DNA of 64,000 nt from a virus. Lineage: Duplodnaviria > Caudoviricetes. A program made the position numbers and the translations under genes. Shown here piece by piece: positions 274 to 22,983 of this stretch (positions are counted from its first letter, which is position 1; each line of letters opens with the position of its first letter). The stretch spans positions 29,343 to 93,342 of IMG/VR virus record IMGVR_UViG_3300012974_000540; one strand, 5' to 3'. The notes beneath the pieces were generated by a model. It did not search any database and had not been told where the DNA came from. It saw only the letters and a program-made list of their open reading frames with translations.

Positions 274-279
274 GTTTGT

Positions 280-323
280 CTCCTCATGCCGGCGGAGGTG
301 CCGGCGACCCCAGAGGGGTTTCG
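280..323 (-). ncRNA. type II hammerhead-like motif R1 (A3 core)
   Basis: CGAAAC CCC UCU GGG GUC GCCGGC ACCUCC GCCGGC AUGAGGAG. Confidence 0.75.
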
Positions 324-324
324 C

Positions 325-696
325 TCATCGCTCGCCGAAGCGGCACCCCACCTCGGCGCTCAGGGCCTCGGCGTGCAGCCCGGCATAGTCGAGCTGCAGG
401 GGGGTGTAGTTGCTGAAATAATCGCGGTCGGTGTCGCCCGGCCGCAACGTCAGGAAGGCCATCACCGCCGCCACCGTCGCGTCGCTGTCGATCGCGTGGA
501 TCGGCGGGCAGCTAAAGTCCTCGCCCATGAACAGCGGGGCGTCCAGGCCGCTCTGCGTGAGCCGGTAGCCGATGACCCATCGGCCGTTCTGGGACCGGCC
601 CGTGTCAAAGAGCGTCAGCGTGAAGGACGGCCCCATGCCCCGCCTGTAGGGGTGGAACCGAACAAAGCGGATCGGTGTGCCCGAGGGCGTGTCCAT
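325..696 (-). CDS. hypothetical phage protein (FLTLRPGDTD motif)
   Basis: start re-assigned to MDTPSG behind the R2 SD; stop 1 nt from R1. Confidence 0.75.
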   Translation of the reverse strand: MDTPSGTPIRFVRFHPYRRGMGPSFTLTLFDTGRSQNGRWVIGYRLTQSGLDAPLFMGEDFSCPPIHAIDSDATVAAVMAFLTLRPGDTDRDYFSNYTPLQLDYAGLHAEALSAEVGCRFGER

Positions 697-702
697 GTTT
701 GT

Positions 703-743
703 CTCCTCATGCCCAAAGACGGGCGACCCCCGGAGGGGTTTCG
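703..743 (-). ncRNA. type II hammerhead-like motif R2 (A3 core)
   Basis: CGAAAC CCC UCCG GGG GUC GCCC GUCUUU GGGC AUGAGGAG. Confidence 0.75.
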
Positions 744-749
744 GTAGGG

Positions 750-1262
750 CTAGCCTCCGGCCGCGCTGGCCTCGACGGCCTGGCGGTAGATCGCCAGCGC
801 CTCGGCGAAGGGCAGGCAGTTCAGGATCTGGTCGCAGTCCCGCAGCGTGGCGCGCGCCTTCTCCGGGTTCCGGGTCCACTGCTCCAGGGTCGCCTTCGGC
901 AGCGACTTGGTCTCGTAGATCGGGGTCTGCCCCTGCTTCGTGAACAGGATGCGCCGCTTCAGGGCTGTCCGCAGATCGCGCTCCGTCAGCCAGTCGCTCA
1001 GCAGCTCGTCCACCAGGATCTCGCCGGTTTGCGGCATGGTGTGCGTTCGGCCGCCCATGTCGTAGGACAGGGGAGGCAGCGTGGCCGCATAGGCGTTGAG
1101 CCGTTCTTCCAGCTCGCGCGGGTGGATCGAGGTGGGGCCACCATGGCCCCGGTTGCTGGCCTCGCCCGCGCGTTTGCCATCGACATAGATCGATGCCGTG
1201 AAGCAGCGCGTCTCCTCGCTCATGGAGGCGACGTACTGCACGTTCCGCAGCTCGATTTTCAT
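750..1262 (-). CDS. conserved hypothetical phage protein (SEET..F.A..Y.DGK..N.GHGG)
   Basis: MKIELRN start behind R3. Confidence 0.75.
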   Translation of the reverse strand: MKIELRNVQYVASMSEETRCFTASIYVDGKRAGEASNRGHGGPTSIHPRELEERLNAYAATLPPLSYDMGGRTHTMPQTGEILVDELLSDWLTERDLRTALKRRILFTKQGQTPIYETKSLPKATLEQWTRNPEKARATLRDCDQILNCLPFAEALAIYRQAVEASAAGG

Positions 1263-1271
1263 GGGGTGTCT

Positions 1272-1319
1272 CTCATCAAGCCCGCGATGGTGCGGGCGAC
1301 CTGACAGCGTCAGGTTTCG
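1272..1319 (-). ncRNA. type II hammerhead-like motif R3 (U3 core)
   Basis: CGAAAC CUGAC GCU GUCAG GUC GCCCGC ACCAUC GCGGGC UUGAUGAG. Confidence 0.8.
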
Positions 1320-1600
1320 ATGCGTACGTTCCTTTCCGGGGTGATGCGGCTCTGCGCATCCCGCCAGGGGCGGTCGTCCTTCCAGACGCGGCGGTTGTAG
1401 TGCCACTGCGCCAGGGTGAGGCGGGCATAGCCCTCCAGCAGCGGCTGGGTGCGGATGCCGCCATCGGCCGCGGTGAAATGCTCCGTGGCGACCTCCTCGC
1501 CCGCTTTCGTGCAGCGGATCTGGATCCAGCCGTCCTGGTAGTCACCGTGGACGGTGCGGCCCTCGTCGTCCGCCGCCTGGGCGGTGAAGGACGTGCTCAT
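1310..1600 (-). CDS. hypothetical protein
   Basis: MSTSFT start overlaps the upstream stop (ATGA); its own stop lies inside R3. Confidence 0.6.
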   Translation of the reverse strand: MSTSFTAQAADDEGRTVHGDYQDGWIQIRCTKAGEEVATEHFTAADGGIRTQPLLEGYARLTLAQWHYNRRVWKDDRPWRDAQSRITPERNVRIET

Positions 1601-1953
1601 GCCTCGTGCTCCAATTCGTCGTCTTCCGGCAGGCCGGCTGCGAGCTTCTGGACCATCAGCCGCATGTTGTTTGCGAGGATGGTCTGCTCGCGCCGCAGCC
1701 GGTCCAGGGCGCCGATGGCGGCTTGCAGCTCCTCGGACAGGCCGGCGCTGAATCGCTCCAGCCGCCTGATGCGAGAGCTTTGCACCTGCTTGTCCCCGAT
1801 CAGGAGCGCCAGTGCGGCGGCGATCTGCTTCGCCTCCGTCTCCGGGTCGGGGCCGGGCTGATAGATCTCGATCAGCTCGGGCCGTCCGGACTGGATGGCG
1901 AGCGCGACCGCGCCCGGCACCGTGAGGTCCGTTGTGAAGATGGATGAGCGCAT
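1597..1953 (-). CDS. hypothetical coiled-coil protein
   Basis: 118 aa ORF behind the R4 SD. Confidence 0.7.
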   Translation of the reverse strand: MRSSIFTTDLTVPGAVALAIQSGRPELIEIYQPGPDPETEAKQIAAALALLIGDKQVQSSRIRRLERFSAGLSEELQAAIGALDRLRREQTILANNMRLMVQKLAAGLPEDDELEHEA

Positions 1954-1958
1954 GTGGT

Positions 1959-2006
1959 CTCCTCATGCCCGCGATGGTGCGGGCGACCTGACGGTGTCAG
2001 GTTTCG
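1959..2006 (-). ncRNA. type II hammerhead-like motif R4 (A3 core)
   Basis: CGAAAC CUGAC ACC GUCAG GUC GCCCGC ACCAUC GCGGGC AUGAGGAG; nearly identical to R3. Confidence 0.75.
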
Positions 2007-2227
2007 GTCTGTCGCCGCCTCAGCTCATCTCGAAAGATGCTGAGGTGCAGGTGGCAGAGCTGTCGGTTTATCCGCCGGCCCAGGTGAACACCGAGCACCG
2101 GCGCGATGTCCGGCAGGGCCAGGGTCTCCTGCGTGCTCCGGATATGCCAGCGCAGGCGCGCTTTCGGCCAGAGCCGCGCGGATGCGCGCAGCTCCTCCGC
2201 GTGTCGGCAGGCCGCCGCATCGCTCAC
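1997..2227 (-). CDS. hypothetical protein
   Basis: 76 aa, GTGA-coupled to the upstream ORF, stop inside R4. Confidence 0.5.
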   Translation of the reverse strand: MSDAAACRHAEELRASARLWPKARLRWHIRSTQETLALPDIAPVLGVHLGRRINRQLCHLHLSIFRDELRRRQTET

Positions 2228-2610
2228 GCGCTGGCCGCCGCCGGGAAGGGGTCCGTCAGGGGGCTGAAGATCTCCGCGTCGCCCGAGGCGCTGTCGGCCT
2301 CCGGGCGCGTCCAGGCGAAGAACCCCATCGGGTCACCGCCCGGGCGCGAATTGGCGGTCGCCTTGTCGAAGCCCGGCGGCTTCCGCTGGGTGCGGTTCGC
2401 CATCGTGGTGGAGATCATGAAGCTCCGGTGCCGGTTCGCCGCGTGAACGTGCTCCCCGAAGGCCTGCACCTTCTCGGGCAGCTCGGAGATGCGGCGGATG
2501 CCGACGATCTCCTGCGGCGGGCGGCTGCCCAGCGAGAAGCTGGTCTTGAAGCCCACGTCGGTCCGCACCGCGGGGAGGGCGGTGAGCTTGATCAGATAGG
2601 TTGTCGCCAA
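2224..2610 (-). CDS. hypothetical protein
   Basis: TTG start behind the R5 SD. Confidence 0.65.
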   Translation of the reverse strand: MATTYLIKLTALPAVRTDVGFKTSFSLGSRPPQEIVGIRRISELPEKVQAFGEHVHAANRHRSFMISTTMANRTQRKPPGFDKATANSRPGGDPMGFFAWTRPEADSASGDAEIFSPLTDPFPAAASA

Positions 2611-2618
2611 GGGTCTTA

Positions 2619-2668
2619 CTCCTCATGCCCGCGAATGTGCGGGCGACCCCCGAGGAGAGGGGGTTTCG
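2619..2668 (-). ncRNA. type II hammerhead-like motif R5 (A3 core)
   Basis: CGAAAC CCCC..GGGG GUC GCCCGC ACAUUC GCGGGC AUGAGGAG. Confidence 0.75.
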
Positions 2669-3040
2669 TCAGCCCTTGGCGGGCTGGGTCATCAGGGCGA
2701 TGGCCTCCTCGGCCAGCCTGATGACGGTCTCGTTCCAGGCGCGCTGCTCCTCCAGCGTGTAGGGATACCAGCTCGCGGGGCGCAGCCACACGCCATCCAC
2801 CAGACGCAGGTACATGGCGTCGTCGGGAGCGACGTCGTCCGGCATCAGCGGGGCGTCGTCGTCCGCCTTGTCCTGCTCCGGCGGGTCGTCCTGGTTGTCG
2901 TAGTAACCCGGCGGCGGCGTCTCGGGGCTGAGCAGTTCCGGCCCGCCTGGCACGCTGCCGTCCAGGTCGTCGATCCAGCGGCCCGTGGCGCGGCTGCCCC
3001 GGATGATCTCCTGCAGCCTGGCGACGATCGCTTCGTCCAT
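2669..3040 (-). CDS. acidic hypothetical protein
   Basis: 123 aa; stop directly abuts R5; SD from R6. Confidence 0.7.
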   Translation of the reverse strand: MDEAIVARLQEIIRGSRATGRWIDDLDGSVPGGPELLSPETPPPGYYDNQDDPPEQDKADDDAPLMPDDVAPDDAMYLRLVDGVWLRPASWYPYTLEEQRAWNETVIRLAEEAIALMTQPAKG

Positions 3041-3046
3041 GTTTGT

Positions 3047-3094
3047 CTCCTCATGCCCGCAGGTGCGCGGGCGACCGCCACGGGGGCGGTTTCG
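3047..3094 (-). ncRNA. type II hammerhead-like motif R6 (A3 core)
   Basis: CGAAAC CGCC CCCGU GGCG GUC GCCCGC GCACCU GCGGGC AUGAGGAG. Confidence 0.75.
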
Positions 3095-3098
3095 ATGC

Positions 3099-3989
3099 TC
3101 AGGGCCGCACGATGGTCATCGGCGGTGAGTGGCCGCCGCCGTGGATGGCGGTGGCACGCACCGGGATCTGGCGGCCATCTTGCAGCGTTCGGGTGTGTGC
3201 GCGGCGCCAGTGCGGCGCAACGGTGGCGCCTGTCGGTGCTCCACGCTGCCTGGATCTCTCCGCCCCAAGCTGGCTGAGCGAGAGGACGCGGATGCTGGAG
3301 AGAGGCCGTAAGCGCCCCCTCTCCCGACCCCGGTTCATCTCCCTCCAGGCCTGCGTTTCCGGGGCGTCCCGCACCTCGACCTCGCCATCTCCCCGGCCGC
3401 TGTCCGCCAGGGCGGTTGCGAGGGCGATGCAGTACAGGACCTGCTCCTTGTAGGCTCTCAGGTCCTGCTCCCGTTCCTCGGGTGTCTGCGGGTCGTCCTT
3501 CTCTGGCAGGCCAGGCATTTCCAGACGGACGACGGCGAGCGCCTGCATGGCGAATGAGTAGCGCCAGCCGGAGGTGATGAGATACCACGGCGACGTCCGT
3601 CCGGTGACGGGATCGACGTCGCGCCATGCCTCGAAGCACGTCCAGCTTCCATCGGTCTCGTCAGCTTGGAGGAACAGGAGAACCTGCTCCACGATGTCCG
3701 GGAACTCAGGATCGGTGGTGCCGGTATTCAGCATGAAGACGCATTCGGGGTGCGGCAGCGGCGGGGCCTGATCCAGCGTGATCTGCCCACCCTGCATGGC
3801 GTGGACGCGCTCCACCACCACCGGGTCCGCGAAAGCGAAGACCGGCACGGTCAACCAATCCTGCGGAAGCCGGATCTCCCGATACTCGCCGTGGGTGCCG
3901 AACGACACGCGGAGACGACCCTTGCGGGCCGCCTCCACGAATGCCGAAAATGCGTCCGGGAATGCCGGAACCTTGTCGGCGGCGGGCAT
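3099..3989 (-). CDS. hypothetical phage protein with C-terminal PHWRRAH motif
   Basis: MPAADK start coupled (TGATG) to the upstream stop; VAPHWRRAHTR is a motif seen in phage proteins. Confidence 0.65.
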   Translation of the reverse strand: MPAADKVPAFPDAFSAFVEAARKGRLRVSFGTHGEYREIRLPQDWLTVPVFAFADPVVVERVHAMQGGQITLDQAPPLPHPECVFMLNTGTTDPEFPDIVEQVLLFLQADETDGSWTCFEAWRDVDPVTGRTSPWYLITSGWRYSFAMQALAVVRLEMPGLPEKDDPQTPEEREQDLRAYKEQVLYCIALATALADSGRGDGEVEVRDAPETQAWREMNRGRERGRLRPLSSIRVLSLSQLGAERSRQRGAPTGATVAPHWRRAHTRTLQDGRQIPVRATAIHGGGHSPPMTIVRP

Positions 3990-4342
3990 CACGCGACATC
4001 CTCGGCCGTGTCGAGGCCGGCGTCGTCGTAGAGCTCTTTCGCCAGGCGGCCGTGCCCGAAGAACGCCATCACCTCCTCGATGGTGGTGCAGACGGCGCCT
4101 TCGTGGCGGGTGCGCTCGCCCTGCCACTGCGAGAAGCCGACGCGCTCGCAGACATACTTTCCGCCCTCGGTTTCGTAGAGCGCCAATGCCTGCCTGCGGC
4201 CGGTGCTGCCCGAGAAGTCCGGGCTGGCGGTGTCCCAGGAATTGCTGGCGGCACCGAGGAGCCATCCCTTGAACCGGATGGGCCGCTCCTTGTCCCGCTC
4301 CAAGACGTGGGCCCTGGCTGGGGGCTTGGTGTCGTCGGTCAT
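3989..4342 (-). CDS. hypothetical phage protein (LYET.GGKYV motif)
   Basis: MTDDTK start with GAGGA SD after a multi-hairpin leader. Confidence 0.7.
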   Translation of the reverse strand: MTDDTKPPARAHVLERDKERPIRFKGWLLGAASNSWDTASPDFSGSTGRRQALALYETEGGKYVCERVGFSQWQGERTRHEGAVCTTIEEVMAFFGHGRLAKELYDDAGLDTAEDVA

Positions 4343-4440
4343 GATGTTTCCTCGCCCGAAGACGCAGTCGGGCCTCTGCTGCCGCACAGCGGCACAAGAA
4401 GGGTGCCCCGGCGTCGTGGCCGGGCACAACCCTTTCGGTT

Positions 4441-4485
4441 CTCGTCAAGCCGGCGTGATTGCCGGCGACCCCCGTGGGGGTTTCG
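4441..4485 (-). ncRNA. type II hammerhead-like motif R7 (U3 core)
   Basis: CGAAAC CCC CACG GGG GUC GCCGGC AAUCAC GCCGGC UUGACGAG. Confidence 0.8.
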
Positions 4486-4486
4486 C

Positions 4487-4966
4487 TCAAGCGTGCTGCT
4501 CGTCCAGATCGTCCGTCCCGATCACATCGGAGACGAAGACATCCTTCAGCTCCGGTTCGGGCCAATAGGAGCCGTGGTTGGAGGCCATGTCGTCCATGGC
4601 CTGGCCGATCTCGCCGTTGAGATTGGCCTCGACGATGGCGATCGCTTCCTCGGCGCTGCTGGCCTCGACTTCGACGGCGCCATCACCGGTGCTTTCCGGA
4701 TAAAGGAACTCCATGCAGATCTGATAGAATTGCGAGCCGGAGCCGCCGTTCAGCTCCCGCAGGGCATCCTCGTAATCGAGCAGGACCAGGGGATGCTGGC
4801 GCGGCAGGGCCAGCGCGGGCTCGCTGTCGTGGGTCAGATAGGCGTGGCGGCCGGTCAGGGCAGCCGCGGCCGCCTTGCGGACGGCGCGGGGGCCGTAATC
4901 GGCCGCGATCTCCTCGAAGCTGCGCAGGCGGCGGGTGCCGGGGCGCAGAACAAAGATGTCGGACAT
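4487..4966 (-). CDS. hypothetical protein, paralog of 5350-5835
   Basis: shares RKAA.AALTGRH and A.SAEEA motifs. Confidence 0.75.
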   Translation of the reverse strand: MSDIFVLRPGTRRLRSFEEIAADYGPRAVRKAAAAALTGRHAYLTHDSEPALALPRQHPLVLLDYEDALRELNGGSGSQFYQICMEFLYPESTGDGAVEVEASSAEEAIAIVEANLNGEIGQAMDDMASNHGSYWPEPELKDVFVSDVIGTDDLDEQHA

Positions 4967-4974
4967 CGCGCGTT

Positions 4975-5019
4975 CTCGTCATGCTGGCGGGATTGCCAGC
5001 GACCGCCGGGGCGGTTTCG
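4975..5019 (-). ncRNA. type II hammerhead-like motif R8 (A3 core)
   Basis: CGAAAC CGCC..GGCG GUC GCUGGC AAUCCC GCCAGC AUGACGAG (compensatory change in stem I). Confidence 0.75.
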
Positions 5020-5020
5020 G

Positions 5021-5290
5021 TCAGCGCGTTTTTTTGCAGAGCCGTGGGGCCTGCCGGGGCGGGATGCCGTCCACCACCTCGACCTCCGCCTCCGTGCTGA
5101 TCCACAACCGCGCGCCGCAGGAGAGCGGCTTGTCGGGTGAATAGACGATGCGGCAGGGGCCATGGATGACCAGCTCGCTGGCGTAGCGGCGGTGGCGTCC
5201 CTCTCGGATGATGACCGGCGGCTCCCGCTGCTCCGGCGCGACATGCATGTTGCGCCGGATGCGGTGCTGATAGACGTGAATGAGCTTCAC
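5021..5290 (-). CDS. conserved small phage protein (YSPDKPLSCGARLWI)
   Basis: 89 aa between R8 and R9. Confidence 0.7.
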   Translation of the reverse strand: MKLIHVYQHRIRRNMHVAPEQREPPVIIREGRHRRYASELVIHGPCRIVYSPDKPLSCGARLWISTEAEVEVVDGIPPRQAPRLCKKTR

Positions 5291-5298
5291 GGAGGGGC

Positions 5299-5345
5299 CT
5301 CTTCAAGCCGGCGGATGTGCCGGCGACCGCCCTGCGGCGGTTTCG
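5299..5345 (-). ncRNA. type II hammerhead-like motif R9 (U3 core)
   Basis: CGAAAC CGCC GCAG GGCG GUC GCCGGC ACAUCC GCCGGC UUGAAGAG. Confidence 0.8.
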
Positions 5346-5349
5346 CTGT

Positions 5350-5835
5350 TTAGATCGGGTTGATGTCCCCGATGGCGTATCTGACCGGATAGGGGTTCGG
5401 GTAGTCGTGCATTTCGTGCGCGGACTCCAGAGCCTCCGAGACGTAGCCGTTGTGGTCGTTGTTGGCTTCCTGCAGCGCCTCCTCGGCGCTGTTGGCGCGG
5501 ATCGGCACGCGACCTTCGACTTCCGTGGCCGGGAACTCGAAGGTGACATAGACCATGTAGCGGCGCTTCTCGCCGTCCTGCCTCGTCAGCTCCTCCACGA
5601 CGTCGCTGTGGGCGACGTAGCGCAGGATGTGGTTGCGCGGCAGGATGACGGTCTGCGGCGCGTTGGCCTGGCGCTCCCGGTCGTCCACCAGCAGGTGGCG
5701 CCCGGTCAGCGCGGCCATCGCCGCCTTGCGGGCGACCGCATCGCCAAAGCTGACGCGGATCCACTCAAAGCTCTGCGCGGTGCGCAGCCCGTTGCGGAGG
5801 ACGATCACGTCGCCCTCGGTTTCAAAGACGGACAT
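5350..5835 (-). CDS. hypothetical protein, paralog of 4487-4966
   Basis: MSVFETEG start behind R10. Confidence 0.75.
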   Translation of the reverse strand: MSVFETEGDVIVLRNGLRTAQSFEWIRVSFGDAVARKAAMAALTGRHLLVDDRERQANAPQTVILPRNHILRYVAHSDVVEELTRQDGEKRRYMVYVTFEFPATEVEGRVPIRANSAEEALQEANNDHNGYVSEALESAHEMHDYPNPYPVRYAIGDINPI

Positions 5836-5845
5836 GGTGTGCATG

Positions 5846-5891
5846 CTCTTCATGCCGGCGGGATTGCCGGCGACCCCTCTACGGGGTTTCG
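5846..5891 (-). ncRNA. type II hammerhead-like motif R10 (A3 core)
   Basis: GCGAAAC CCC GUAGA GGG GUC GCCGGC AAUCCC GCCGGC AUGAAGAGC. Confidence 0.75.
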
Positions 5892-6268
5892 CGATGCGAC
5901 AGCGAGAGCGCCAGATTGATGTGGGTGATCTGCTGGTGCAGTTCCAGGATCCAGGGCGCGTCGAGGGGTTCCAATGTCTCGGCATTGCCCTGGACGGTCG
6001 CCTGCCGGAAGGCGCTGTCGCGCTCATCCTCCAGCAGGTTCCGCACATCCATCAGCGCCGCGCGGGTGGCCGCCACGAAGTGGCCCGGCGGACCCAGCAC
6101 CCGGTGCAGCAGCGCGGCGAAGGTCTTCGAGAGGTGCAGCGTCCCGCCCCTGGCGGAGTGGTAGGCGGCCTCGGCCCGGCCTGGGCCATCCGCCAGCCGG
6201 TAGCCCGGCGGGCAGCCGGCCTGCCAGAAGCGCTGGCGGTCCATCATTATCTGCATGTCTGCATGCAT
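5879..6268 (-). CDS. hypothetical protein
   Basis: 129 aa between R10 and R11. Confidence 0.6.
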   Translation of the reverse strand: MHADMQIMMDRQRFWQAGCPPGYRLADGPGRAEAAYHSARGGTLHLSKTFAALLHRVLGPPGHFVAATRAALMDVRNLLEDERDSAFRQATVQGNAETLEPLDAPWILELHQQITHINLALSLSHRETP

Positions 6269-6280
6269 GCATGCGGTCTC

Positions 6281-6322
6281 CTCGTCATGCCAGTGAAGCT
6301 GGCGACCCCTCGCGGGGTTTCG
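6281..6322 (-). ncRNA. type II hammerhead-like motif R11 (A3 core)
   Basis: CGAAAC CCC GCGA GGG GUC GCCAG CUUCA CUGGC AUGACGAG. Confidence 0.75.
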
Positions 6323-6341
6323 GTTTCGCGGGCCTTTGGGG

Positions 6342-6806
6342 TCACGCGGTGGCGGGTGTCGTCGCCAGCAGCATGGCCTTCAGGTCGTCCCAGCGGGAGC
6401 AGGTGTAGCCGGGCAGGCGATGCTGGATGTCCTCCTCGGCCGACGCTATCGCGTTGCGCAGGCAGCGGAGGCGTTGTTCGGACGGCTCCCGGAGGTAGCT
6501 GGCCCAGTCGTCGTGCAGGCACTGCATCAGGAGCAGGATGGTGCTATCGGCGCCGAGGAAGCGCGGCGCCAGGTAGCCGCGGACCTGCAGCCCGCCCTTG
6601 CCCTCCATGTAGGGCTGGTAGAGGCTCGGGGAGATCAGCGCGCCCAGGGCGCACATGAGTCCGTCCGGCCCGCGATAGAGGCAGTCGCCGCTTTCGTTGA
6701 CGCTCGGGCGCCCCTGATCGAGCAGGTGCGCCACGATGGCGTCGATGGCGGCGGTGGTGGCCTCGCGCTGGGTCTGGCCACCGGGGTCGATGTTGGTTTC
6801 GGACAT
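6342..6806 (-). CDS. conserved phage protein (HLL.QG.PS..C.YR..G..CA.G.LI..Q..HD)
   Basis: MSETNID start with AAGGA SD. Confidence 0.7.
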   Translation of the reverse strand: MSETNIDPGGQTQREATTAAIDAIVAHLLDQGRPSVNESGDCLYRGPDGLMCALGALISPSLYQPYMEGKGGLQVRGYLAPRFLGADSTILLLMQCLHDDWASYLREPSEQRLRCLRNAIASAEEDIQHRLPGYTCSRWDDLKAMLLATTPATA

Positions 6807-6846
6807 GGATATGTCGTCCTTTTCATCCGGCGAAGGTGCCGGAACC

Positions 6847-6882
6847 AAAAGAGGCCGCCCAACGGTGATTGGGCGGCCTCTT
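6847..6882 (-). terminator. rho-independent terminator-like hairpin next to a degenerate repeat (R12, about 6818-6846)
   Basis: AAGAGGCCGCCCAA/TTGGGCGGCCTCTTTT followed by GGUU CCGGC ACCUUC GCCGG AUGAAAAGGA. Confidence 0.6.
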
Positions 6883-6884
6883 GG

Positions 6885-7325
6885 TCATGCGTAGCTGGGG
6901 TTCAGTGACGGCAGATCGACCCGCGCCCGCAGCGTCCGGAAACGCATCCCGTCGCCGGGGGCGGCGATCACCAGCGGCTCGGTGAGCCACTGGATCTGGT
7001 CTTCGGTGACGCGGTTCAGCGCGTCACGCGGCCGGAGTTGGTAGCCGTCCAGCGACAGCGCGATCAGGTAGCGCGTGCCGTCGGGCCGGTATTGTTCCCC
7101 ATCGACGCTGACCACCAGGACGCTGCAATCGCTGTCCTGGTAGAGGCCCAGCGCCTCAACCTGGAGGTCGTGGCGCGGGAAGTGGTCGGGAACGGTGCCA
7201 TACGTGTGGGTGAGCTGCAGACCGAAGATGTCGGATGCGACCGGCGGAAAGTTTTGAAACAGCCGGTCGCGAACGGCATCGGGGATCGGCGCCGTCACGC
7301 GCATGACAGGGTGCCTCTTGCTCAT
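6885..7325 (-). CDS. hypothetical phage protein (T..YG..V.V.VDG..RPDG..Y.I.LS)
   Basis: MSKRHP start behind R13; first gene of the left array. Confidence 0.7.
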   Translation of the reverse strand: MSKRHPVMRVTAPIPDAVRDRLFQNFPPVASDIFGLQLTHTYGTVPDHFPRHDLQVEALGLYQDSDCSVLVVSVDGEQYRPDGTRYLIALSLDGYQLRPRDALNRVTEDQIQWLTEPLVIAAPGDGMRFRTLRARVDLPSLNPSYA

Positions 7326-7334
7326 GTGTGTATG

Positions 7335-7379
7335 CTCTTCAGGCCGGCTGGAGTGCCGGCTACCCCATGCGGGGTTTCG
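7335..7379 (-). ncRNA. type II hammerhead ribozyme R13, fully canonical core
   Basis: CGAAAC CCC GCAU GGG GUA GCCGGC ACUCCA GCCGGC CUGAAGAG: CUGANGA, GAAA and GUA triplet. Confidence 0.85.
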
Positions 7380-7414
7380 TGTCGCGCCATGGATGGCGAG
7401 CATGCGACGTGGCG

Positions 7415-7520
7415 TAGCTGATATGGTGTTAAATTCTTAAAATTCAATGCGTTGTTGGCATGGCTTCCGCCCAGGCCCCATCCCGCACCTTCACATCGAT
7501 GTTGCATCCGATGTGATTTC
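7415..7520. promoter_or_regulatory. AT-rich divergent promoter region with TCACATC-N12-GATGTGA operator (7491-7516)
   Basis: AT-rich island between divergent transcription units; motif recurs at 12071, 13062 and 22956. Confidence 0.55.
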
Positions 7521-10134: not shown

Positions 10135-10144
10135 GGACCCCCTT

Positions 10145-10711: not shown

Positions 10712-10968
10712 ACGACACTGAGATCCAGGCCGAGGTGGGCGGCGTCGCCGCCGACCGTCTCCGCTCCATCATCGAGCGCGTCGAGCGCCTGGAGGAGGAG
10801 CGCAAGGCGCTCGCCGACGACATCAAGGACATCTTCACCGAGGCGAAGTCGGCCGGCTTCGAGGCGAAGGTGATCCGCCAGATCATCCGCCAGCGGAAGC
10901 AGGAGCCCGCCGAGGTGGAGGAGCAGGAGACCCTGCTCGACCTCTACCGCCGCGCCCTGGGGATGTGA
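10708..10968 (+). CDS. gapR: GapR (DUF2312) nucleoid-associated protein
   Basis: AADRLRSIIERVERLEEERKALADDIKDIFTEAKSAGF..ETLLDLYRRALGM. Confidence 0.92.
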   Translation: MNDTEIQAEVGGVAADRLRSIIERVERLEEERKALADDIKDIFTEAKSAGFEAKVIRQIIRQRKQEPAEVEEQETLLDLYRRALGM

Positions 10969-10969
10969 G

Positions 10970-11143
10970 ATGGGGCGTCGTCGTGCGAGCGGCATGAAAG
11001 ACCCCTTCGCGGAGGGCTGGGACGCCTGCTGCGAAGGGGCCGGGCTGGAATCATGCCCCTACCCGGTGGCGAGCGGAGATGCCGCCCTCTGGATGGATGG
11101 CTGGCACGAGGCCGTGCATGAGAGGTTGTGCCAGGCGGCATGA
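10970..11143 (+). CDS. Rmf-like small protein (57 aa, absent from the ORF track)
   Basis: own translation: ..PFAEGWDACCEGAGLESCPYP..LWMDGWHEA, matching the Rmf pattern G..A..G..CPY..W..GW. Confidence 0.65.
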   Translation: MGRRRASGMKDPFAEGWDACCEGAGLESCPYPVASGDAALWMDGWHEAVHERLCQAA

Positions 11144-11382
11144 TCGCGGCATCCGGGCCGGCCGCCTCCGTGTGGCTGGTCCGGCGGGGGTCCGGCGCTG
11201 GGCCGGTTGTGGGCCTCCTGCTGCGGGAGATCCCGCCCGGCCAGGAGGCGCTCTGCCTGCGGCGGCAGGAGGGGCTGGAGCGGCATCCGCTCGACTGGGT
11301 GGCCCGCGAGGTGCATCTGCAATGCGGCGCCGCGCTCGACGGCCTGCTGGGCTTTCTGCCGACGCCCCTCGATGTCGGCTAA
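11140..11382 (+). CDS. hypothetical protein
   Basis: ATGA-coupled ORF. Confidence 0.5.
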   Translation: MIAASGPAASVWLVRRGSGAGPVVGLLLREIPPGQEALCLRRQEGLERHPLDWVAREVHLQCGAALDGLLGFLPTPLDVG

Positions 11383-11840
11383 AAGACGATGATGGGATTC
11401 CCGGTGAGGGGCACCTGCAGCATCCGCAGCAGGTCGGCGTATTCCGTCACCGACCGCACCACGGCGTAGCGGTGGCCGAAGGCTTCGACGGCGGCCTGGA
11501 ACTGCTTCTGCTCGCGGCTCTGGTAGGTGCGCTCGGTGAGCAGGCCCTGCGGTAGCTTGACCTCGACGAATGCGACGGCGCCGTGGGTGACCAGGATCAG
11601 GTCGCTGGCGCCCGGCAGCACGCCGGCATCGAGGAGGCGGGCGGCCTCGGCCCTGGCCCTGCGGCCGCCGTTCGGCACCGCGAAGAGCAGGGCGCGCGGG
11701 TCGGCGAAGCGGCGGTGGAACTCGACCAGCGAGGTTTGCAGGTCGTCCTCGGCGTGACGCGGCGCCCGCCGGCGGCCCAGGATCGTGGAATGTTCGGCCA
11801 AGCCCCCTCGCGGCTTCACATCGCCCTTGCCGAGCTTCAC
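11379..11840 (-). CDS. VRR-NUC domain nuclease
   Basis: EDDLQ..FAVPNGG..GVLPGASDL..FVEVK..EQKQF. Confidence 0.85.
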   Translation of the reverse strand: MKLGKGDVKPRGGLAEHSTILGRRRAPRHAEDDLQTSLVEFHRRFADPRALLFAVPNGGRRARAEAARLLDAGVLPGASDLILVTHGAVAFVEVKLPQGLLTERTYQSREQKQFQAAVEAFGHRYAVVRSVTEYADLLRMLQVPLTGNPIIVF

Positions 11841-12073
11841 ACGGAGCGGCTACCGATGTGAAGAGACGCAGCTTCCGCGATCGGCAGCAAGGCTCGTTCC
11901 AATCGGCGCACCGTGGCGAGGGATGGATTCCAATCCGGATCTTCCATGTGACGCAGCGTGTTGGCGTGGACACACGCCTTCTCGGCGAGGACGCATTTCC
12001 GGAGCCCTGCGCTCCGGAAGGCCAGGCGGATCTCGGAAAGGACGGCGTCGATGCGGGGCGTGGAACTCTGCAT
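11837..12073 (-). CDS. Cro-like HTH regulator
   Basis: LAEKACVHANTLRHME..WNPSLATVRRLE; divergent from the CI-like gene. Confidence 0.7.
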   Translation of the reverse strand: MQSSTPRIDAVLSEIRLAFRSAGLRKCVLAEKACVHANTLRHMEDPDWNPSLATVRRLERALLPIAEAASLHIGSRSV

Positions 12074-12100
12074 GACGATGTGACCTATCACATCGTCATG
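12071..12100. promoter_or_regulatory. 13-bp perfect inverted repeat operator between cro-like and cI-like genes
   Basis: CATGACGATGTGA-ccta-TCACATCGTCATG. Confidence 0.7.
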
Positions 12101-12130
12101 TGACGCGGAACAAGACCAGGGGGTCGTTGA

Positions 12131-13009
12131 GTGATGGTAGTGAAGGCGTCGCAGCCTGCCAGGAAGAATCCTTCCGTGGGGGCGCGCGCGGAGGCGAAGC
12201 CTGTGGTCGTGCAGGTGAGCGCGGCCGAGGCGCGGCTGAGTGATTACCTCTCCGACGAAGAGGTGGAGCGCGACCGGCAGGGGATGCGCGACACGATGAA
12301 GCGCCTCGACCTGGTGCCGAACACCTGGGCGCGGGCAGCCGGGTTCCGCAACGCCAATGCCCTCTACAACTGGTTGTCGGGCCGCACCCGGAGCCTGAGC
12401 CTGGATGTGCGGGAGCGGCTGGCGGCGGTGCTGCCCGGCGAGACGGCCTGGAGCATCATCGGGCGGAAGCCGCCGCGGGCGCGGAAGAACGCGGTCGATG
12501 CGGTGATGCGGCAGGTGCCGATCCGCACGGCGGCGCGGGCCAGCCTCTGGCGGCGCGTCTATGAGCTGCCGAAGCGGGAGCGGGGCAGCATCCTCGCCGT
12601 CGCGATGCCCGACAACGACATGGATATCGCCGTCCGCATCGACGACGACAGCATCAACGAGCTTTATTCCGCCGGCTCCTATGCCCTGGTGCATAGCCTC
12701 CGGCCCCAGGATCGGCTGCGGAACGGCGATGTCGTGCTGGTGGAGCGGCGCCGTGTGCGCGCCGAGGCCGAGACGGTCGAGATCACGCTGCGCCAGGTCG
12801 TGGTGACGAAGCAAGGGGCCGTGCTGCGCTGGCGCAGCCTGAATCCGGACTTCCAGGGGGACGTGCCCATGCCCTGGCCTTACGAGGGGGGGAAGCCCTT
12901 CACCAACCTGCAGGAGCCGAAATTCGCGATCCACAAGCGGTCGGTCTATCGGATCACCGGCGTGGTGGTCACCGTGCAGACCATGGCGCGGCGCATCTTG
13001 AACGGCTGA
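12131..13009 (+). CDS. CI-like repressor (HTH plus S24-like C-terminal domain)
   Basis: WARAAGF..NALYNWLSGRTRSL; DDSINELY..G..LRNGDVVLVER..ITGVV. Confidence 0.7.
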   Translation: MMVVKASQPARKNPSVGARAEAKPVVVQVSAAEARLSDYLSDEEVERDRQGMRDTMKRLDLVPNTWARAAGFRNANALYNWLSGRTRSLSLDVRERLAAVLPGETAWSIIGRKPPRARKNAVDAVMRQVPIRTAARASLWRRVYELPKRERGSILAVAMPDNDMDIAVRIDDDSINELYSAGSYALVHSLRPQDRLRNGDVVLVERRRVRAEAETVEITLRQVVVTKQGAVLRWRSLNPDFQGDVPMPWPYEGGKPFTNLQEPKFAIHKRSVYRITGVVVTVQTMARRILNG

Positions 13010-13047
13010 CAAACCCTCTGGATTGACCCGCCTGGGCGGTGTTTTTA

Positions 13048-13088
13048 TTGACTTTCCACCTTCACATCACATAGCTGTGTGATGTGAA
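13048..13088 (+). promoter_or_regulatory. sigma70-like promoter overlapped by TTCACATCACA/TGTGATGTGAA operator
   Basis: TTGACT at 13048; inverted repeat 13061-13088. Confidence 0.6.
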
Positions 13089-13104
13089 GAATGGGTGGTG
13101 CCGC

Positions 13105-13740
13105 ATGGCTCGGAAGCGTCGCTACGTGAAGTCGAGGACGATGACGCTGGTGCGGGACAAGCAGAGCGGCATCCTTGTCGCCCACGCCGGCAGCGACTAC
13201 GGCGCCCAGCACGAGGTGCGCCGTGCCCGTGGGGAAATCGAGATCCGCGACCGTGAGGTGACGAATTCCGGCGTGCTCGTCGCGCGCGGCGCCTATGTCG
13301 TGGCGCCGGGTGCGGTCGAGCGCCTCGCCCGCGACGGCCTGCTCTGCGATCCGCGCGACACAGCGGCGAACCGGGCCGCCGAGACGCGGCGGCGCCTGAT
13401 GGCGGCCGAGACGTTCCGCGTCAGCGCCGAGATCGCCCAGGTGCGCCCGCGCATGGTGGCCCGCTACGACTCATGCATGTTCAGCGGCGCCATGGCGGTG
13501 ATTCCCGACGTCATGGCGCATGCCCGCTCCCGCCTGAACCGCTATGTGCCGGTCATGGGCTGGTGCCGCTTCCTGACGCTGCTGAACGCGGTGGTCTTCG
13601 AGTGCGCGACCACGCCGCGCGAGGACCGCATCATCGCCGAGGCGCTGCGGCTCCTGGCCGACCACCTGGACGCAAAAAACCCCCGAGGTGATACCTCGGG
13701 GGCGGGGCACTCAGCCGAGCAGCGGATGCAGGCAGCCTAG
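13105..13740 (+). CDS. hypothetical protein, possible late-gene regulator
   Basis: 211 aa; position after repressor; LR.LADH C-terminus. Confidence 0.5.
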   Translation: MARKRRYVKSRTMTLVRDKQSGILVAHAGSDYGAQHEVRRARGEIEIRDREVTNSGVLVARGAYVVAPGAVERLARDGLLCDPRDTAANRAAETRRRLMAAETFRVSAEIAQVRPRMVARYDSCMFSGAMAVIPDVMAHARSRLNRYVPVMGWCRFLTLLNAVVFECATTPREDRIIAEALRLLADHLDAKNPRGDTSGAGHSAEQRMQAA

Positions 13741-14097
13741 CTGCGACAGCGACTGGAGGTCGCGCAGGACGGTCTGTCCGAGCGCGACGGCGAAGGGGGT
13801 CACGTCGGCCTCGATGATGTCCAGCAGGCACTGGAGCTTCATCACCAGCTCGCGGCCGTTCTGCGCGGCGGCCGCGGCCATCTCCCAGTCGAGCACGGTG
13901 AGGTCGGCCATGATCTGCTTGGCCTCGGGGCTCTCGGGGTCGAGGTCGCCCCAGGCGAGGCGCATCTCATTGCCGCGGCGGAGCAGGTCGGGGATGGAAT
14001 CCGGCACGACGGGCAGGCGGCTCAGGGGGGCGACATCCGGGAAGGTGACGCTGGAGGGCAGGGAGGTCGTAGGCACCGCGGGCAGAGTGGGGGTCAT
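13711..14097 (-). CDS. hypothetical protein
   Basis: MTPTLP start with GGAGAGG SD. Confidence 0.55.
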   Translation of the reverse strand: MTPTLPAVPTTSLPSSVTFPDVAPLSRLPVVPDSIPDLLRRGNEMRLAWGDLDPESPEAKQIMADLTVLDWEMAAAAAQNGRELVMKLQCLLDIIEADVTPFAVALGQTVLRDLQSLSQLGCLHPLLG

Positions 14098-14252
14098 GGA
14101 CCTCTCCAGGGGGACGGAGTTTCGGAACAATCCGCGAACTCACGTTGCGGCGCCGTGGTGAAATTGCCTCGAAGGGGTTGATCACGCAAGCGTGAAATTC
14201 AACCGACCCGAAATGTGCCTTGGAAAAGAGCCAGCCCGAGTCTGTAAACACA

Positions 14253-14293
14253 GAAACGCCCACCAGCCTCGGGGAGAGGCTGATGGGCGTTTC
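14253..14293. terminator. long hairpin, possible bidirectional terminator
   Basis: GAAACGCCCA-CAGCCTC/GAGGCTG-TGGGCGTTTC. Confidence 0.5.
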
Positions 14294-14739
14294 GTCGTTC
14301 AGTCGTCGGGGAGGGTTTAGGCTTAGAAGGCATGAAGCCTCCTGTGTTCGGGCAGGGGTGCGGGGCCCTGGCCTACTCGGGGCCTGCTCCTGGCGCTCGT
14401 GGGGTCCGCGAGCACCGGGAATCTCTATTGATGTCTTCCCTCCGGAAGTCGGGCCGTTGTCCAGGCGGCGGTCGTCTAGTCCAGCTCGTCGGGTGCCAGG
14501 CGACGTGACGGGATCTGGCAGTGCGGCGTGTGTGGGCCGATGCCGGGCATCCCAGCGTCGGCACACCTCCCAAGGACTCCAGATGGGACGCCCTGGACGG
14601 GGCGGCCACCTTCGCTCGACCCTGCGGGGATTGCTTGATCGGGGTTAGGGGAACTGGTTGGCGGCGGTGTGCCGGTGACAGATATATGGCGACGCCAGCG
14701 CTGTTTTTCAACGCGGGCGTTTCGTTTCTTCTCAGGCCA

Positions 14740-15210
14740 TTACAGGGAAATCGGCGAATAGAAGCCGAGCCGGGCGGCGTGCGCATCGAAGGGCCGGCAG
14801 CCGGTCTTGATCCATTGGATGATGTGCTGGAGGTCGGTGCCCATCGGGAAGCCCAGGAAGGCTTCCTCGGTGAGGCCGTCGCCGCCCAGCTCGATCTCCT
14901 GCAGCGCATCCCAGACGCGGATCGCTTCCGGGAGGCCGAAGGGGCCGTGGCACCACTCGTCGGGCACCAGCTGGTGCTCGCGCCAGAAGGCGCCGGTCTC
15001 ATCCTGCACGACCTGCTGCCCGTCGATCCGCAGGGGCGTCGGGGTGTTCCCGGCGCTGTAGGGGTGGCCATCCGTGTGCGTGTCGATCTGCGGGATGCGC
15101 CCATGATCCGTCACCAAGAAGGTGGCTTTGCTCACGGGCGCGCATTGGTGGGCCACGAGGACCAGGCCCGAGATCAGATCGCCGGTCGGCGAGCGCAGAA
15201 GGGTGTTCAT
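14740..15210 (-). CDS. hypothetical protein (cassette)
   Basis: MNTLLRS start behind R14. Confidence 0.65.
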   Translation of the reverse strand: MNTLLRSPTGDLISGLVLVAHQCAPVSKATFLVTDHGRIPQIDTHTDGHPYSAGNTPTPLRIDGQQVVQDETGAFWREHQLVPDEWCHGPFGLPEAIRVWDALQEIELGGDGLTEEAFLGFPMGTDLQHIIQWIKTGCRPFDAHAARLGFYSPISL

Positions 15211-15219
15211 GGGTCTGCT

Positions 15220-15264
15220 TTCTTCAAGCCGGCGGGAATGCCGGCAATCCCGGAACGGGATTTC
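15220..15264 (-). ncRNA. type II hammerhead-like motif R14 (U3 core, AUU triplet)
   Basis: GAAAU CCCG UUC CGGG AUU GCCGGC AUUCCC GCCGGC UUGAAGA; compensatory U-A at pair 15.2-16.2. Confidence 0.7.
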
Positions 15265-15638
15265 TAGCTCTGCACCAGCGCGGTGACGGCGATCACGCGC
15301 TGGCGCTGGTCCTTCACGGGGGCGAATTGCGGCCCCGATCCGGGAAATACCACGTCCGGCCGGCTCATGCCCCGCTGGCGGAGCAGCAGGGCGGTGATCT
15401 GGGAGACGATGTGGAAGGTCCCGGCGCGCGGTGGCGGCAGGCCGACCACGTCGCCGTAGATCGGTGGCGGCTCGATCCGCACGCCGTCCGCCTCGGCCGG
15501 CTGGCCGCAGGGGTGGACGACGACGCGCGCCACGGTGCCGCTCGGGGGCACCATGCGCATGCCGGTGGGGGTGGCGAGCATGACCGGATGTGGGGTGAGA
15601 TTCACGAACCGCTCGCAGGCGGTCGCTGGTGTCGGCAA
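15264..15638 (-). CDS. NLTPH-motif phage protein
   Basis: FVNLTPHPV..VPPSGTVARV..GLPPPR.G..IVS..RPDVVFP. Confidence 0.7.
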   Translation of the reverse strand: MPTPATACERFVNLTPHPVMLATPTGMRMVPPSGTVARVVVHPCGQPAEADGVRIEPPPIYGDVVGLPPPRAGTFHIVSQITALLLRQRGMSRPDVVFPGSGPQFAPVKDQRQRVIAVTALVQS

Positions 15639-15648
15639 AGGTCGGTTC

Positions 15649-15695
15649 CTCTTCATGCCGGCGGGATGGCCGGCGACCGCCAGGTGGCGGTTTCG
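15649..15695 (-). ncRNA. type II hammerhead-like motif R15 (A3 core)
   Basis: CGAAAC CGCC ACCU GGCG GUC GCCGGC CAUCCC GCCGGC AUGAAGAG. Confidence 0.75.
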
Positions 15696-15700
15696 TTTTA

Positions 15701-16012
15701 CTACCACTCGAAGGTGGGCAGTCCTTCCACATCCTCGCCGTCGCCATGCAGGTTGATCCACCAGCAATCGTGCTGGCGGGCCAGCCGCATGATCCCGAGG
15801 AAGGCGTCCGACATGCCGCGCTGGCGCAGCTCGGCGTCGGTTTCGCGGGCGCTGTCGCTCGGGCAGTTGATGAACCACCCGATCTCGTGGTGGATCACCC
15901 GCACCGGGAAGTCATGGCTCTCCCGGTCGAGGGCCTGGAGGCGGTCGTTGTCGGCCTTCGGGATGTGGCCGGTGGAGATGTTCAGGAAGTGACGAATGGC
16001 GTCGTCGGCCAT
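15701..16012 (-). CDS. DUF5983-like protein
   Basis: LNISTGHI..GWFI..LARQHDCWWINL..DG..EGLPTFEW. Confidence 0.65.
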   Translation of the reverse strand: MADDAIRHFLNISTGHIPKADNDRLQALDRESHDFPVRVIHHEIGWFINCPSDSARETDAELRQRGMSDAFLGIMRLARQHDCWWINLHGDGEDVEGLPTFEW

Positions 16013-16019
16013 GGTTTGT

Positions 16020-16063
16020 CTCCTCATGCCCGCGGGGTGCGGGCGACCGCGAGCGCGGTTTCG
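16020..16063 (-). ncRNA. type II hammerhead-like motif R16 (A3 core)
   Basis: CGAAAC CGC..GCG GUC GCCCGC ACCCC GCGGGC AUGAGGAG. Confidence 0.75.
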
Positions 16064-16112
16064 TGGATGTGGAAAAGGCCCCCCTGCGCGCGGGGCGACA
16101 GGGAGGCCTTGG

Positions 16113-16394
16113 TCACGCCCGCCGGCGAAAGCCGACGAGATGCTGCAAGCAGTCGTCCAGGCTTCCATGCGCGATCCAGATCTTCGTCTGGGCCGGCTTG
16201 TGCGCCACGCCCTCGGCCGTCGCCAGGAAGTCCGTGTCCCAGAGGGAGAGGAACTCCAGGCCGTAGCCGAGGGTGCCGTGGCGGTCGGCCTCGATGTCGT
16301 GGGTGGCGAGCATGCCGCACAGGTGGCGGCCGCCGTACACGGTTCCGGGCTTCATCGCGTTTTGGACGTTCTGCAAGGTTTGCGGTGAGAGCAA
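16113..16394 (-). CDS. hypothetical protein (cassette)
   Basis: TTG start behind the GAGGAG SD of R17. Confidence 0.55.
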   Translation of the reverse strand: MLSPQTLQNVQNAMKPGTVYGGRHLCGMLATHDIEADRHGTLGYGLEFLSLWDTDFLATAEGVAHKPAQTKIWIAHGSLDDCLQHLVGFRRRA

Positions 16395-16404
16395 GGGGTT
16401 TCTC

Positions 16405-16448
16405 CTCATCGGCGGCGCGGATTGCGCCGTAGCCCCGAGGGGCTTTCG
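16405..16448 (-). ncRNA. type II hammerhead-like motif R17 (CCGAUGA core, CUA triplet)
   Basis: CGAAAG CCC..GGG CUA CGGCGC AAUCC GCGCCG CCGAUGAG; compensatory G-C at pair 15.2-16.2. Confidence 0.75.
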
Positions 16449-16491
16449 GAGAAGCGAGCGGCCCACCGGGGCGGGCCGCTCGACACGTTTG

Positions 16492-16755
16492 TCAGGCCAG
16501 CAGCAGGTATTGCCGCAGGTGCCGGCTGGCGGCCTCTGCGCGCTTGTGCAGGACGGCCTGACGGGCCTGGCCGAGCACCTCGGTGCTCCGGTCCATCTTC
16601 TGGCTGACATCCTCGGGGATCGCATCGCCGTAGAGGGCGGTGAGCTGGGCCGAGCGTGCCAGCAGGATCGCCACCTCGGTCTCCACGGCGGCGCGCAGGC
16701 GCTCCAGGGGGAGCGTGGCGACGGTGGCGAGGAGGTGGGCTTCGATGTGGCTCAT
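16492..16755 (-). CDS. hypothetical protein (cassette)
   Basis: 87 aa behind R18. Confidence 0.65.
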   Translation of the reverse strand: MSHIEAHLLATVATLPLERLRAAVETEVAILLARSAQLTALYGDAIPEDVSQKMDRSTEVLGQARQAVLHKRAEAASRHLRQYLLLA

Positions 16756-16762
16756 GGGTGGT

Positions 16763-16817
16763 CTCTCTTTCGCCGGATCTGCGGCTTGTCAGCCCGGCCG
16801 CCTGGCCGGGAAGAGAG
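16763..16817 (-). ncRNA. type III hammerhead-like motif R18 (CUGACAA core)
   Basis: CUCUC UU CCCGGCC AGGC GGCCGGG CUGACAA GCCG CAGAUC CGGC GAAA GAGAG. Confidence 0.75.
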
Positions 16818-16847
16818 TCCCCCTCCCCGTAGGGGAGGGGGGAGAGA

Positions 16848-17222
16848 TCAGTCGTCCAGTTCCGCCAGCCGCGTCAGCCGGTGGAGAGGGTGCGACGCCC
16901 GGTAGAGGACGATCTCCCGCTTGGTGACCTCGGCGACGATGTCCGTCACCGCCCGGAAGGCGGAGAGGACCAGCTCCGAGGTCATGTCGAGGTTGCCGGC
17001 GGTGCCATCCACCAGGTGGCGGAAGCGCATCCCGGCCTCCTCGGCCTGGTCCCGCTCCGGGAACTGGGCGGGCAGGTAGCAGAGCCGGCTGCGGCCGTTC
17101 CCCTGGTTCGTCAGGGTGACGGCGACGGCGTGGCGGGTGTTCGACGTTTGGATCACGGCATAGCCGGCGGCGAGGCCCGGAAGGCCCGGCTCGCCGATCG
17201 GCAAGCTGATCGGGTGGTCCAT
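16848..17222 (-). CDS. hypothetical protein (cassette)
   Basis: MDHPIS start behind R19. Confidence 0.65.
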   Translation of the reverse strand: MDHPISLPIGEPGLPGLAAGYAVIQTSNTRHAVAVTLTNQGNGRSRLCYLPAQFPERDQAEEAGMRFRHLVDGTAGNLDMTSELVLSAFRAVTDIVAEVTKREIVLYRASHPLHRLTRLAELDD

Positions 17223-17229
17223 GGGGGTT

Positions 17230-17279
17230 CCTTTCGCCCGAGTTGGGCTCAACAGCCCGGCGGGGGGGTGCCGGGTAGG
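17230..17279 (-). ncRNA. type III hammerhead-like motif R19 (CUGUUGA core)
   Basis: CC UA CCCGGC ACCCCCCC GCCGGG CUGUUGA GCCC AACUC GGGC GAAA GG. Confidence 0.7.
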
Positions 17280-22944: not shown

Positions 22945-22948
22945 CTCC

Positions 22949-22977: not shown

Positions 22978-22983
22978 GCGGCA

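Follow-up and report, generated by a model that had tools for sequence, protein, structure and literature searches.

The window analysed here, a stretch of 64,000 nucleotides (nt) of viral DNA (bases 29343-93342 of the 93,342-nt virus record IMGVR_UViG_3300012974_000540, which is 85% complete), contains two arrays of accessory genes whose junctions carry RNA motifs with the layout of hammerhead ribozymes. The motifs have two hairpins (I and III) and a conserved core, lie between the stop codon of one gene and the start codon of the next, and use the 3' half of their core as a ribosome-binding site (RBS). Sequence and predicted fold indicate that the motif is a descendant of the type II hammerhead and would work in a similar way, even if the base pair between core positions 3 and 8 is broken in most copies. 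We consider it about an even bet (probability near 0.5) that these joints are attenuated or assisted ribozymes, which would release hairpin-protected one-gene mRNAs and would also serve as recombination joints.

Hammerhead-like motifs at the junctions of two gene arrays

A structure-aware scan identified 16 type II and three type III hammerhead-layout motifs in the window, and 27 type II and three type III layouts in the whole 93-kb contig. All 30 are on the minus strand, at gene junctions of the two arrays. Order-3 Markov shuffles gave zero or one type II match per 64 kb, and 0.05 type III layouts are expected by chance per 93 kb. A preliminary description of the window, made from its letters, had reported at least 18 motifs, and all 18 were recovered in the same minus-strand places: 12 type II copies in 280-7379, and four type II and two type III-like copies in 15220-17279. 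A 19th motif, type III-like, is present at 6793-6848 (minus strand). Past the window edge, the first array continues with 11 more type II copies. The motifs are confined to the accessory-gene arrays, as had been proposed: a covariance model built from the 27 copies finds nothing further in the contig (next E 0.02), a relaxed scan allowing three core mismatches gives no additional decayed copies there, and none occurs outside the arrays of three relatives described below (G001, G002, and L193).

The type II ancestry and topology are supported. Two of the 11 copies outside the window pass the gathering cut-off of the Rfam Hammerhead_II model (RF02276; 37 bits), with scores of 42.7 and 41.4, although none of the 16 window copies does (best 26). 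Loops close off both stem I and stem III, and stem II is open. The stems covary, as the preliminary description had reported: pairing is complete (100%) in stems III and I and drops to 81% and 84%, respectively, when the arms are swapped, yet the copies are 54% (stem III) and 71% (stem I plus core) alike. Five of the nine tested stem pairs change on both sides, which none of 500 shuffles reached. Folding in sequence context gave the stems a median probability of 0.95-0.98, and hairpin I persists in the predicted post-cut product of most copies.

Within the core, G12, A13, A14, the A15.1-U16.1 pair, G5, A6, and A9 are present in all 27 type II copies, and U4 in 26 of them. The U4C change reported for the copy at 16405-16448 was recovered, and agrees with its minimum-free-energy fold. 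Position 17 is indeed never G (C in 24 copies, A in two, U in one), and the 15.2-16.2 pair is C-G, U-A, or G-C, again as reported. The C11.1-G10.1 pair of stem II is found in 26 of the 27 copies, the second pair being mostly mismatched; two copies outside the window have a stem II that can be extended to 6-7 pairs.

The 3' half of the core is a Shine-Dalgarno (SD) site, with the start codon about 8 nt downstream. Where G7 is present (12-13 copies), 7-8 pairs can form between the core and a generic anti-SD (about -9 kcal/mol), and most of these copies have their SD 6-11 nt ahead of the start. The conservation of UGA is not accounted for by SD function, because UGA is retained in 20 of the 22 copies from outside this phage where the SD has moved off it. 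The stop codon generally precedes the motif, as had been described, but three stops lie inside stem III. Promoter and terminator scans of the repeats led us to reject a role as promoters or terminators.

Relatives and motif classes

In four IMG/VR records (G001-G004), the virion genes are syntenic with those of this phage, their proteins being roughly 25-60% identical; these records carry arrays at the same place, with 0-2 array genes in common with it. There are about 22 copies in G001, about 15 in G002, and 19 in 11 kb of a metagenome contig (L193). Counts from the metagenome scan and from a third viral scan are lower bounds, and their patterns fixed GAAA, UC, and UGA; relaxed and covariance-model searches were added to offset this. 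Among 103 parsed copies, GAAA is found in 102, U16.1 in all, and A9 in 97 out of 97, and position 17 is G only once; the stem sequences vary. UGA is present in 70 of the 76 copies from outside this phage. Position 8 is G in 84 copies, A in 12, and U in one, regardless of position 3. Within-genome homogenisation cannot explain this conservation, because the core is kept across diverged phages while the stems vary. As judged from these comparisons, selection has long maintained, over deep time, the fold of the hammerhead and the majority of its catalytic bases; the 3-8 pair has not been kept in this way.

We compared 171 non-redundant copies from fetched loci; these copies are not independent, and 25 of the short-stem ones come from this contig. 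When stem II has at least three pairs (87 copies, 61 loci), C3-G8 is present in 81 copies, the start codon is at a median of 24 nt after A9, and the SD is separate. When stem II has one pair or none (58 copies, 21 loci), C3-G8 is present in 22 copies, the SD is inside the core in 44, and the median distance is 8 nt. An intermediate class keeps C3 (L133, L201, and L238). The comparison suggests that there are three classes—canonical, intermediate with C3 kept, and compact, the last including the motifs of this phage. The canonical class also forms tandem arrays in the same stop-to-start slot (L205, L151, and L176). Arrays of three to six fully canonical type II hammerheads, with 3-4-bp stems II, were observed in L205, L151/L194, L176, L136, L148, and L256. 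The Rfam model misses this common canonical subtype, because the canonical copies tested (L205, L151, L176, L136, and L256) fall below its cut-off. Among the hammerhead joints of the small-gene array of L133, a twister-P5 ribozyme (3983-4042, minus strand; 49.6 bits) occupies the same stop-to-SD slot; this speaks for cutting as the original function of such slots.

Two relatives depart further from the consensus. In L193, 11 of the 19 copies have an extra base before position 3, resembling impaired variants from a saltern. In G002, both hairpins persist, and core bases are lost as detailed in the next section. Among the matches listed from the pattern scan of genome contigs, which were mostly chance matches, only L077 and L079 looked real. 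The former (3559-3623, minus strand) is a single compact A3·G8 copy in the cultured bacterium Hoeflea olei JC234, and offers a possible route to an in vivo test. The nearest cultured relatives of the phage, Brevundimonas phages Polewnik (searched whole) and Strzyga (first 35 of 62 kb), have no such array. DUF6876 genes are among the array cargo, and the motif is missing upstream of their homologs in four other viral contigs, so gene and joint are not always inherited together.

Core lesions, cleavage, and competing explanations

The preliminary description had proposed that RNA catalysis cuts every junction. As it stands this is unproven, and the simple form of the proposal is open to doubt; the key defect, the broken 3-8 pair, had been left unweighed. 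Position 3 of the 27 type II copies is A in 16, U in seven, and C in four (one of the latter with U4C); it is C in only two of the 16 window copies. G8 is kept in 26 of the 27. A fully canonical core is found in only three copies, one of them in the window (7335-7379). The three type III copies have 4-bp stems II and one core lesion each (A6U, C3·A8, and A3·A8). Selection of A3 for an in-frame upstream AUG was rejected, the AUG being in frame in about a third of the copies, as by chance.

Several observations weigh against cleavage, even in an attenuated or assisted form. A Watson-Crick 3-8 pair is present in only five of the 27 copies (four C-G and one U-A), the others being 16 A·G and six U·G, and residual compensation between the two positions was rejected as non-significant (p 0.15-0.18). 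Stem II is a single pair in most copies. Loop I pairs with its own 3' tail no better than with swapped partners (2.26 vs 2.33), loop-tail covariation is not convincing across the parsed copies, and a pseudoknot with the tail or the 5' flank was rejected. In a saturation study of a type III hammerhead, all single changes in the 3-8 region gave low activity and only a 3-8 swap rescued it (PMC9901934); a published example with a one-pair stem II depended on its pseudoknot (PMC3088659). In 17 of the 24 measured junctions, the stop codon is at most 7 nt from GAAA or falls within stem III, and ribosomes translating the upstream gene should therefore perturb folding. In G002, most copies lack C11.1, nine have U17 (four of them facing an A), and UGA is missing from three. 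The analysis identified no helper protein. Because the 3-8 pair is broken in 22 of the 27 copies, stem II has one pair, the pseudoknot is missing, and the published activities are low, fast autonomous cleavage of most copies is unlikely; our estimates of cleavage rates rest on PMC9901934 and general knowledge.

If the joints are attenuated or assisted ribozymes, the arrays would be transcribed as long RNAs from the promoter-like sites at 17877 and near 7447. Each joint would cut after H17, slowly or only when helped (by a protein, by ions, or by the departure of the ribosome), because its 3-8 pair and stem II are weakened. The downstream product would be a 5'-OH mRNA starting at hairpin I, with the SD directly after it, and the upstream product would end in hairpin III and a cyclic phosphate. 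Both new ends would be shielded, giving each gene its own stability and translation rate. In bacterial RNA decay, such capped ends should slow degradation and uncouple genes. The repeated joints would also provide short homologies for phage YqaJ/Erf recombination, by which units of stem I, SD, open reading frame (ORF), and stem III could be gained, lost, or swapped. This reading is favoured by the core conservation across diverged phages described above, by the near absence of G at position 17, by the lack of further decayed copies in the contig, and by the canonical type II arrays, and in one of them the twister-P5 ribozyme, that occupy the same stop-to-start slot in other contigs. Tandem prophage hammerheads showed activity in vitro, and the site of a halovirus variant with an impaired core, located 13 nt ahead of a start codon, matches a 5' end that has been mapped (PMC3088659). 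The halovirus element is a precedent for in vivo action of an impaired variant.

The recombination part of this reading had been anticipated as a gene-shuffling system. Turnover of the cargo is borne out; shuffling itself is supported indirectly, by mosaic motif halves and by the exonuclease and Erf genes next to the array. Among copies, there is no correlation between the half with stem III and the half with stem I plus core (Mantel r -0.09), one stem I is combined with three different stems III, and identical halves have different partners, as expected from crossovers in the invariant motif centre. The YqaJ, Erf, and SSB genes directly follow the array. No strain pair with a cassette indel was found, all close assemblies being identical.

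The main alternative, a tentative one, is that the fold has been re-used without cleavage. The three-way fold of the ground state, with A13 instead of C3 as the partner of G8 or A8, would loosely hold the SD until opened by a ribosome that stops at the upstream gene, or would be bound by a protein, and would couple translation or stabilise the RNA. It is consistent with this that the lost position is precisely the active-state 3-8 pair, that position 8 is almost always a purine, which fits the ground-state 8-13 contact, and that the three type III copies keep their stems despite catalytic lesions. The extra bases of L193, the further decay of G002, and the stop codons that abut or enter the motif point in the same direction. 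Yet the bases required for catalysis are retained (H17 other than G, G5, A6, and G12), canonical and intermediate C3-G8 arrays occupy the same slot, and removal of the 5' part raises SD accessibility only from 0.58 to 0.66 in nearest-neighbour folding, a model that leaves out non-canonical pairs. It is also possible, although we would not count on it, that the lineage has turned the ribozyme into a new RNA part that has lost autonomous cutting and gates translation initiation, or cuts only by leave of the ribosome or a protein, each genome having 20-30 of them as general-purpose plugs for its accessory genes.

Ordinary hammerheads, fast and self-sufficient, cutting co-transcriptionally at each junction as first described, appear improbable. 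Their topology is canonical, as are most bases of the core, two copies score above the Rfam cut-off, and natural core variants can be active (PMC3088659), but the loss of the 3-8 pair, the lack of a full stem II and of a pseudoknot, and the mutational data of PMC9901934 speak against them. We give little credence to repeats acting only at the DNA level, i.e., recombination joints like the PeSL cassettes discussed below, which would carry an SD and would keep hammerhead features as relics of gene conversion. The mosaic halves, the identical sub-blocks at distant copies, the nearby recombination genes, and the precedent (PMC2839356) fit such repeats; on the other hand, the stems always pair in spite of their divergence, and an unpaired core is conserved between deeply diverged phages, on one strand only. 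It is hardly probable at all that a unit, once freed by two cuts, is re-ligated to give a circular RNA with one gene or an RNA-mobile cassette. Type II geometry would put both hammerhead halves on each released unit, and unit ends coincide with the mosaic break point. However, the tail of one copy pairs with the flank of the next no better than random pairs (1.31 vs 1.25 bp), neither RtcB nor a reverse transcriptase is encoded in the 85%-complete contig, and circles went undetected for the prophage clusters tested (PMC3088659).

The motif shares with the type II hammerhead (RF02276; PMC3088659) closed stems I and III, an open stem II, GAAA, UH, and the UGA-N-G-A core. It differs by the usually broken C3-G8, the one-pair stem II, the missing pseudoknot between loop I and tail, and the core that doubles as SD. 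Because one defining feature is missing from most copies, it would be premature to classify these as bona fide type II hammerheads before an assay. Clustered prophage hammerheads flanking variable genes were described, and a role proposed, in 2011 (PMC3088659). The clusters of Clostridium scindens, Azorhizobium caulinodans, and Agrobacterium tumefaciens are likewise intergenic and co-oriented, with one gene or short block per unit and variable genes; mRNA processing was proposed for such clusters, and their role is still open (PMC3088659, PMC6155905, PMC6765202). The tested clusters are fragments of about 2 kb with few active ribozymes (three in A. tumefaciens), whereas here there are 30 copies per genome, and about 20 in relatives, nearly all of them core variants. 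Variants from a saltern and from haloviruses HF1/HF2 have insertions near C3, show impaired cleavage, and lie near a start codon (PMC3088659), and thus resemble the one-base insertions of L193. They are single elements in halophiles, whereas here C3 is substituted genome-wide in a non-halophile clade. PeSL cassettes, in the hyperplastic regions of T4-like phages (PMC2839356), are also repeated structured joints between non-essential genes and are tied to modular shuffling. They consist of a promoter plus a terminator; the motifs described here have neither, and are ribozyme-derived. RiboJ-type synthetic insulators and the early RNase III sites of T7 are cut upstream of the RBS, which leaves a defined hairpin-capped single-gene mRNA. 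These are engineered or cut by a protein, and their RBS is separate, unlike the core studied here. We found no description in the open-access literature of 20-30 copies per genome, or of what appears to be a type II variant fused to the SD, in which the 3-8 pair is usually broken.

What hammerheads do in prokaryotes is an open question (PMC6155905, PMC6765202), and 30 variants in one genome make it directly testable. Other contigs provide a graded series: canonical, one-pair stem II, 3-8 broken, and core lost. Efficient cutting by the A3·G8 copies would mean that an active-site pair held to be essential is dispensable in some context, and that consensus searches are missing a class of ribozymes. 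If these copies do not cut well, a ribozyme fold would have been kept by selection for another job. A 45-nt module combining cutter and RBS would be a compact natural insulator for operon design.

Individual copies, array cargo, and genomic setting

Array 1 (10-7325; this and all other array coordinates are on the minus strand) has about 16 small ORFs inside the window, most of which belong to no family, and runs about 6.9 kb past the window edge, up to the YqaJ-Erf-SSB genes. Its in-window junctions without motif are overlapping stop-start pairs. It is headed by an AT-rich promoter-like stretch (7418-7447), identified by eye and missed by the consensus scan. The first motif is the canonical copy at 7335-7379, with a predicted cut between 7361 and 7360. 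In the type III-like copy at 6793-6848 (A3·A8), the start codon, at 6806, is inside stem II. Eight type II copies have A3·G8: 6281-6322, with the SD shifted 3 nt downstream; 5846-5891, with the upstream stop codon in loop III; 4975-5019, before the gene 4966-4487 (a paralog of 5844-5350, 36% identity); 3047-3094, which scores 24.5 bits with Rfam Hammerhead_II; 2619-2668, whose stem III is identical to that of a copy 6 kb away, outside the window; 1959-2006, whose stem I is identical to that of 1272-1319; 703-743, before the gene 696-325; and 280-323, whose core is the SD of the gene starting at 273. Three others have U3·G8: 5299-5345; 4441-4485, which scores 26 bits and is followed by a 100-nt structured leader; and 1272-1319, with the upstream stop codon inside stem III.

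Array 2 (14740-17805) has seven small ORFs (one DUF5983), six of which are preceded by a motif. At its head, a sigma-70-like promoter (17848-17877) has 10 out of 12 matches; it is the sole match, with 1.2 expected by chance. The type III-like copies at 17230-17279 (A6U, short stem III) and 16763-16817 (C3·A8) have 4-bp stems II. They are followed by 16405-16448 (C3-G8 with U4C, and A17), 16020-16063 and 15649-15695 (both A3·G8), and 15220-15265, which has U3·G8, U17, and A/A instead of the C11.1-G10.1 pair. The arrays may be expressed early, to judge from the type of genes and the look of the promoters. Extra GC hairpins, some of them terminator-like, are found just upstream of several motifs (16440-16490, 16065-16110, 16820-16850, 17342-17379, and 6852-6880). 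Since they are mostly in array 2, this array may not be one continuous transcript.

The leader that follows the motif at 4441-4485 (4345-4432) has several hairpins and a possible pseudoknot, precedes the gene 4342-3989, and has no Rfam match. The 296-aa array gene at 3099-3989 has a weak precomputed AcrVA2-like Pfam match, not reproduced by hmmscan at E 0.01; it is possibly counter-defence cargo. DUF6884 genes are also among the cargo. At L001 8663-10749 (minus strand), the final array units carry the genes for a 258-aa class II glutamine amidotransferase and for a neighbour of 416 aa.

The sequence of the contig was assembled independently in ENA, Logan, and JGI samples with 100% identity and is thus not an assembly artefact. 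One close assembly (L381) starts with an unrelated low-GC piece and is probably a chimera. A GapR-family match suggests an alphaproteobacterial host. The window encodes a split terminase, portal, Ro60, and primase-helicase, and the contig encodes ParA, thymidylate synthase, SSB, Erf, and YqaJ outside the window. No integrase, RtcB, reverse transcriptase, or tRNA was found in the contig, which is 85% complete. Two similar inverted repeats with the look of operators (about 7488-7515 and 13060-13090) lie near the promoter region of array 1 and a repressor-like gene (11837-13012), respectively; together with ParA and the lack of an integrase, they hint at a plasmid-like prophage. Between terminase and portal, a gene for a Ro60/TROVE RNA-binding protein (22939-24726, plus strand) found no match in G001 or G002, and no link to the motifs was shown. 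The terminase large subunit (18818-21595, plus strand) is split over two ORFs that flank a GIY-YIG endonuclease gene; there is a weak intein match, and both halves are matched at adjacent positions in G001-G004.

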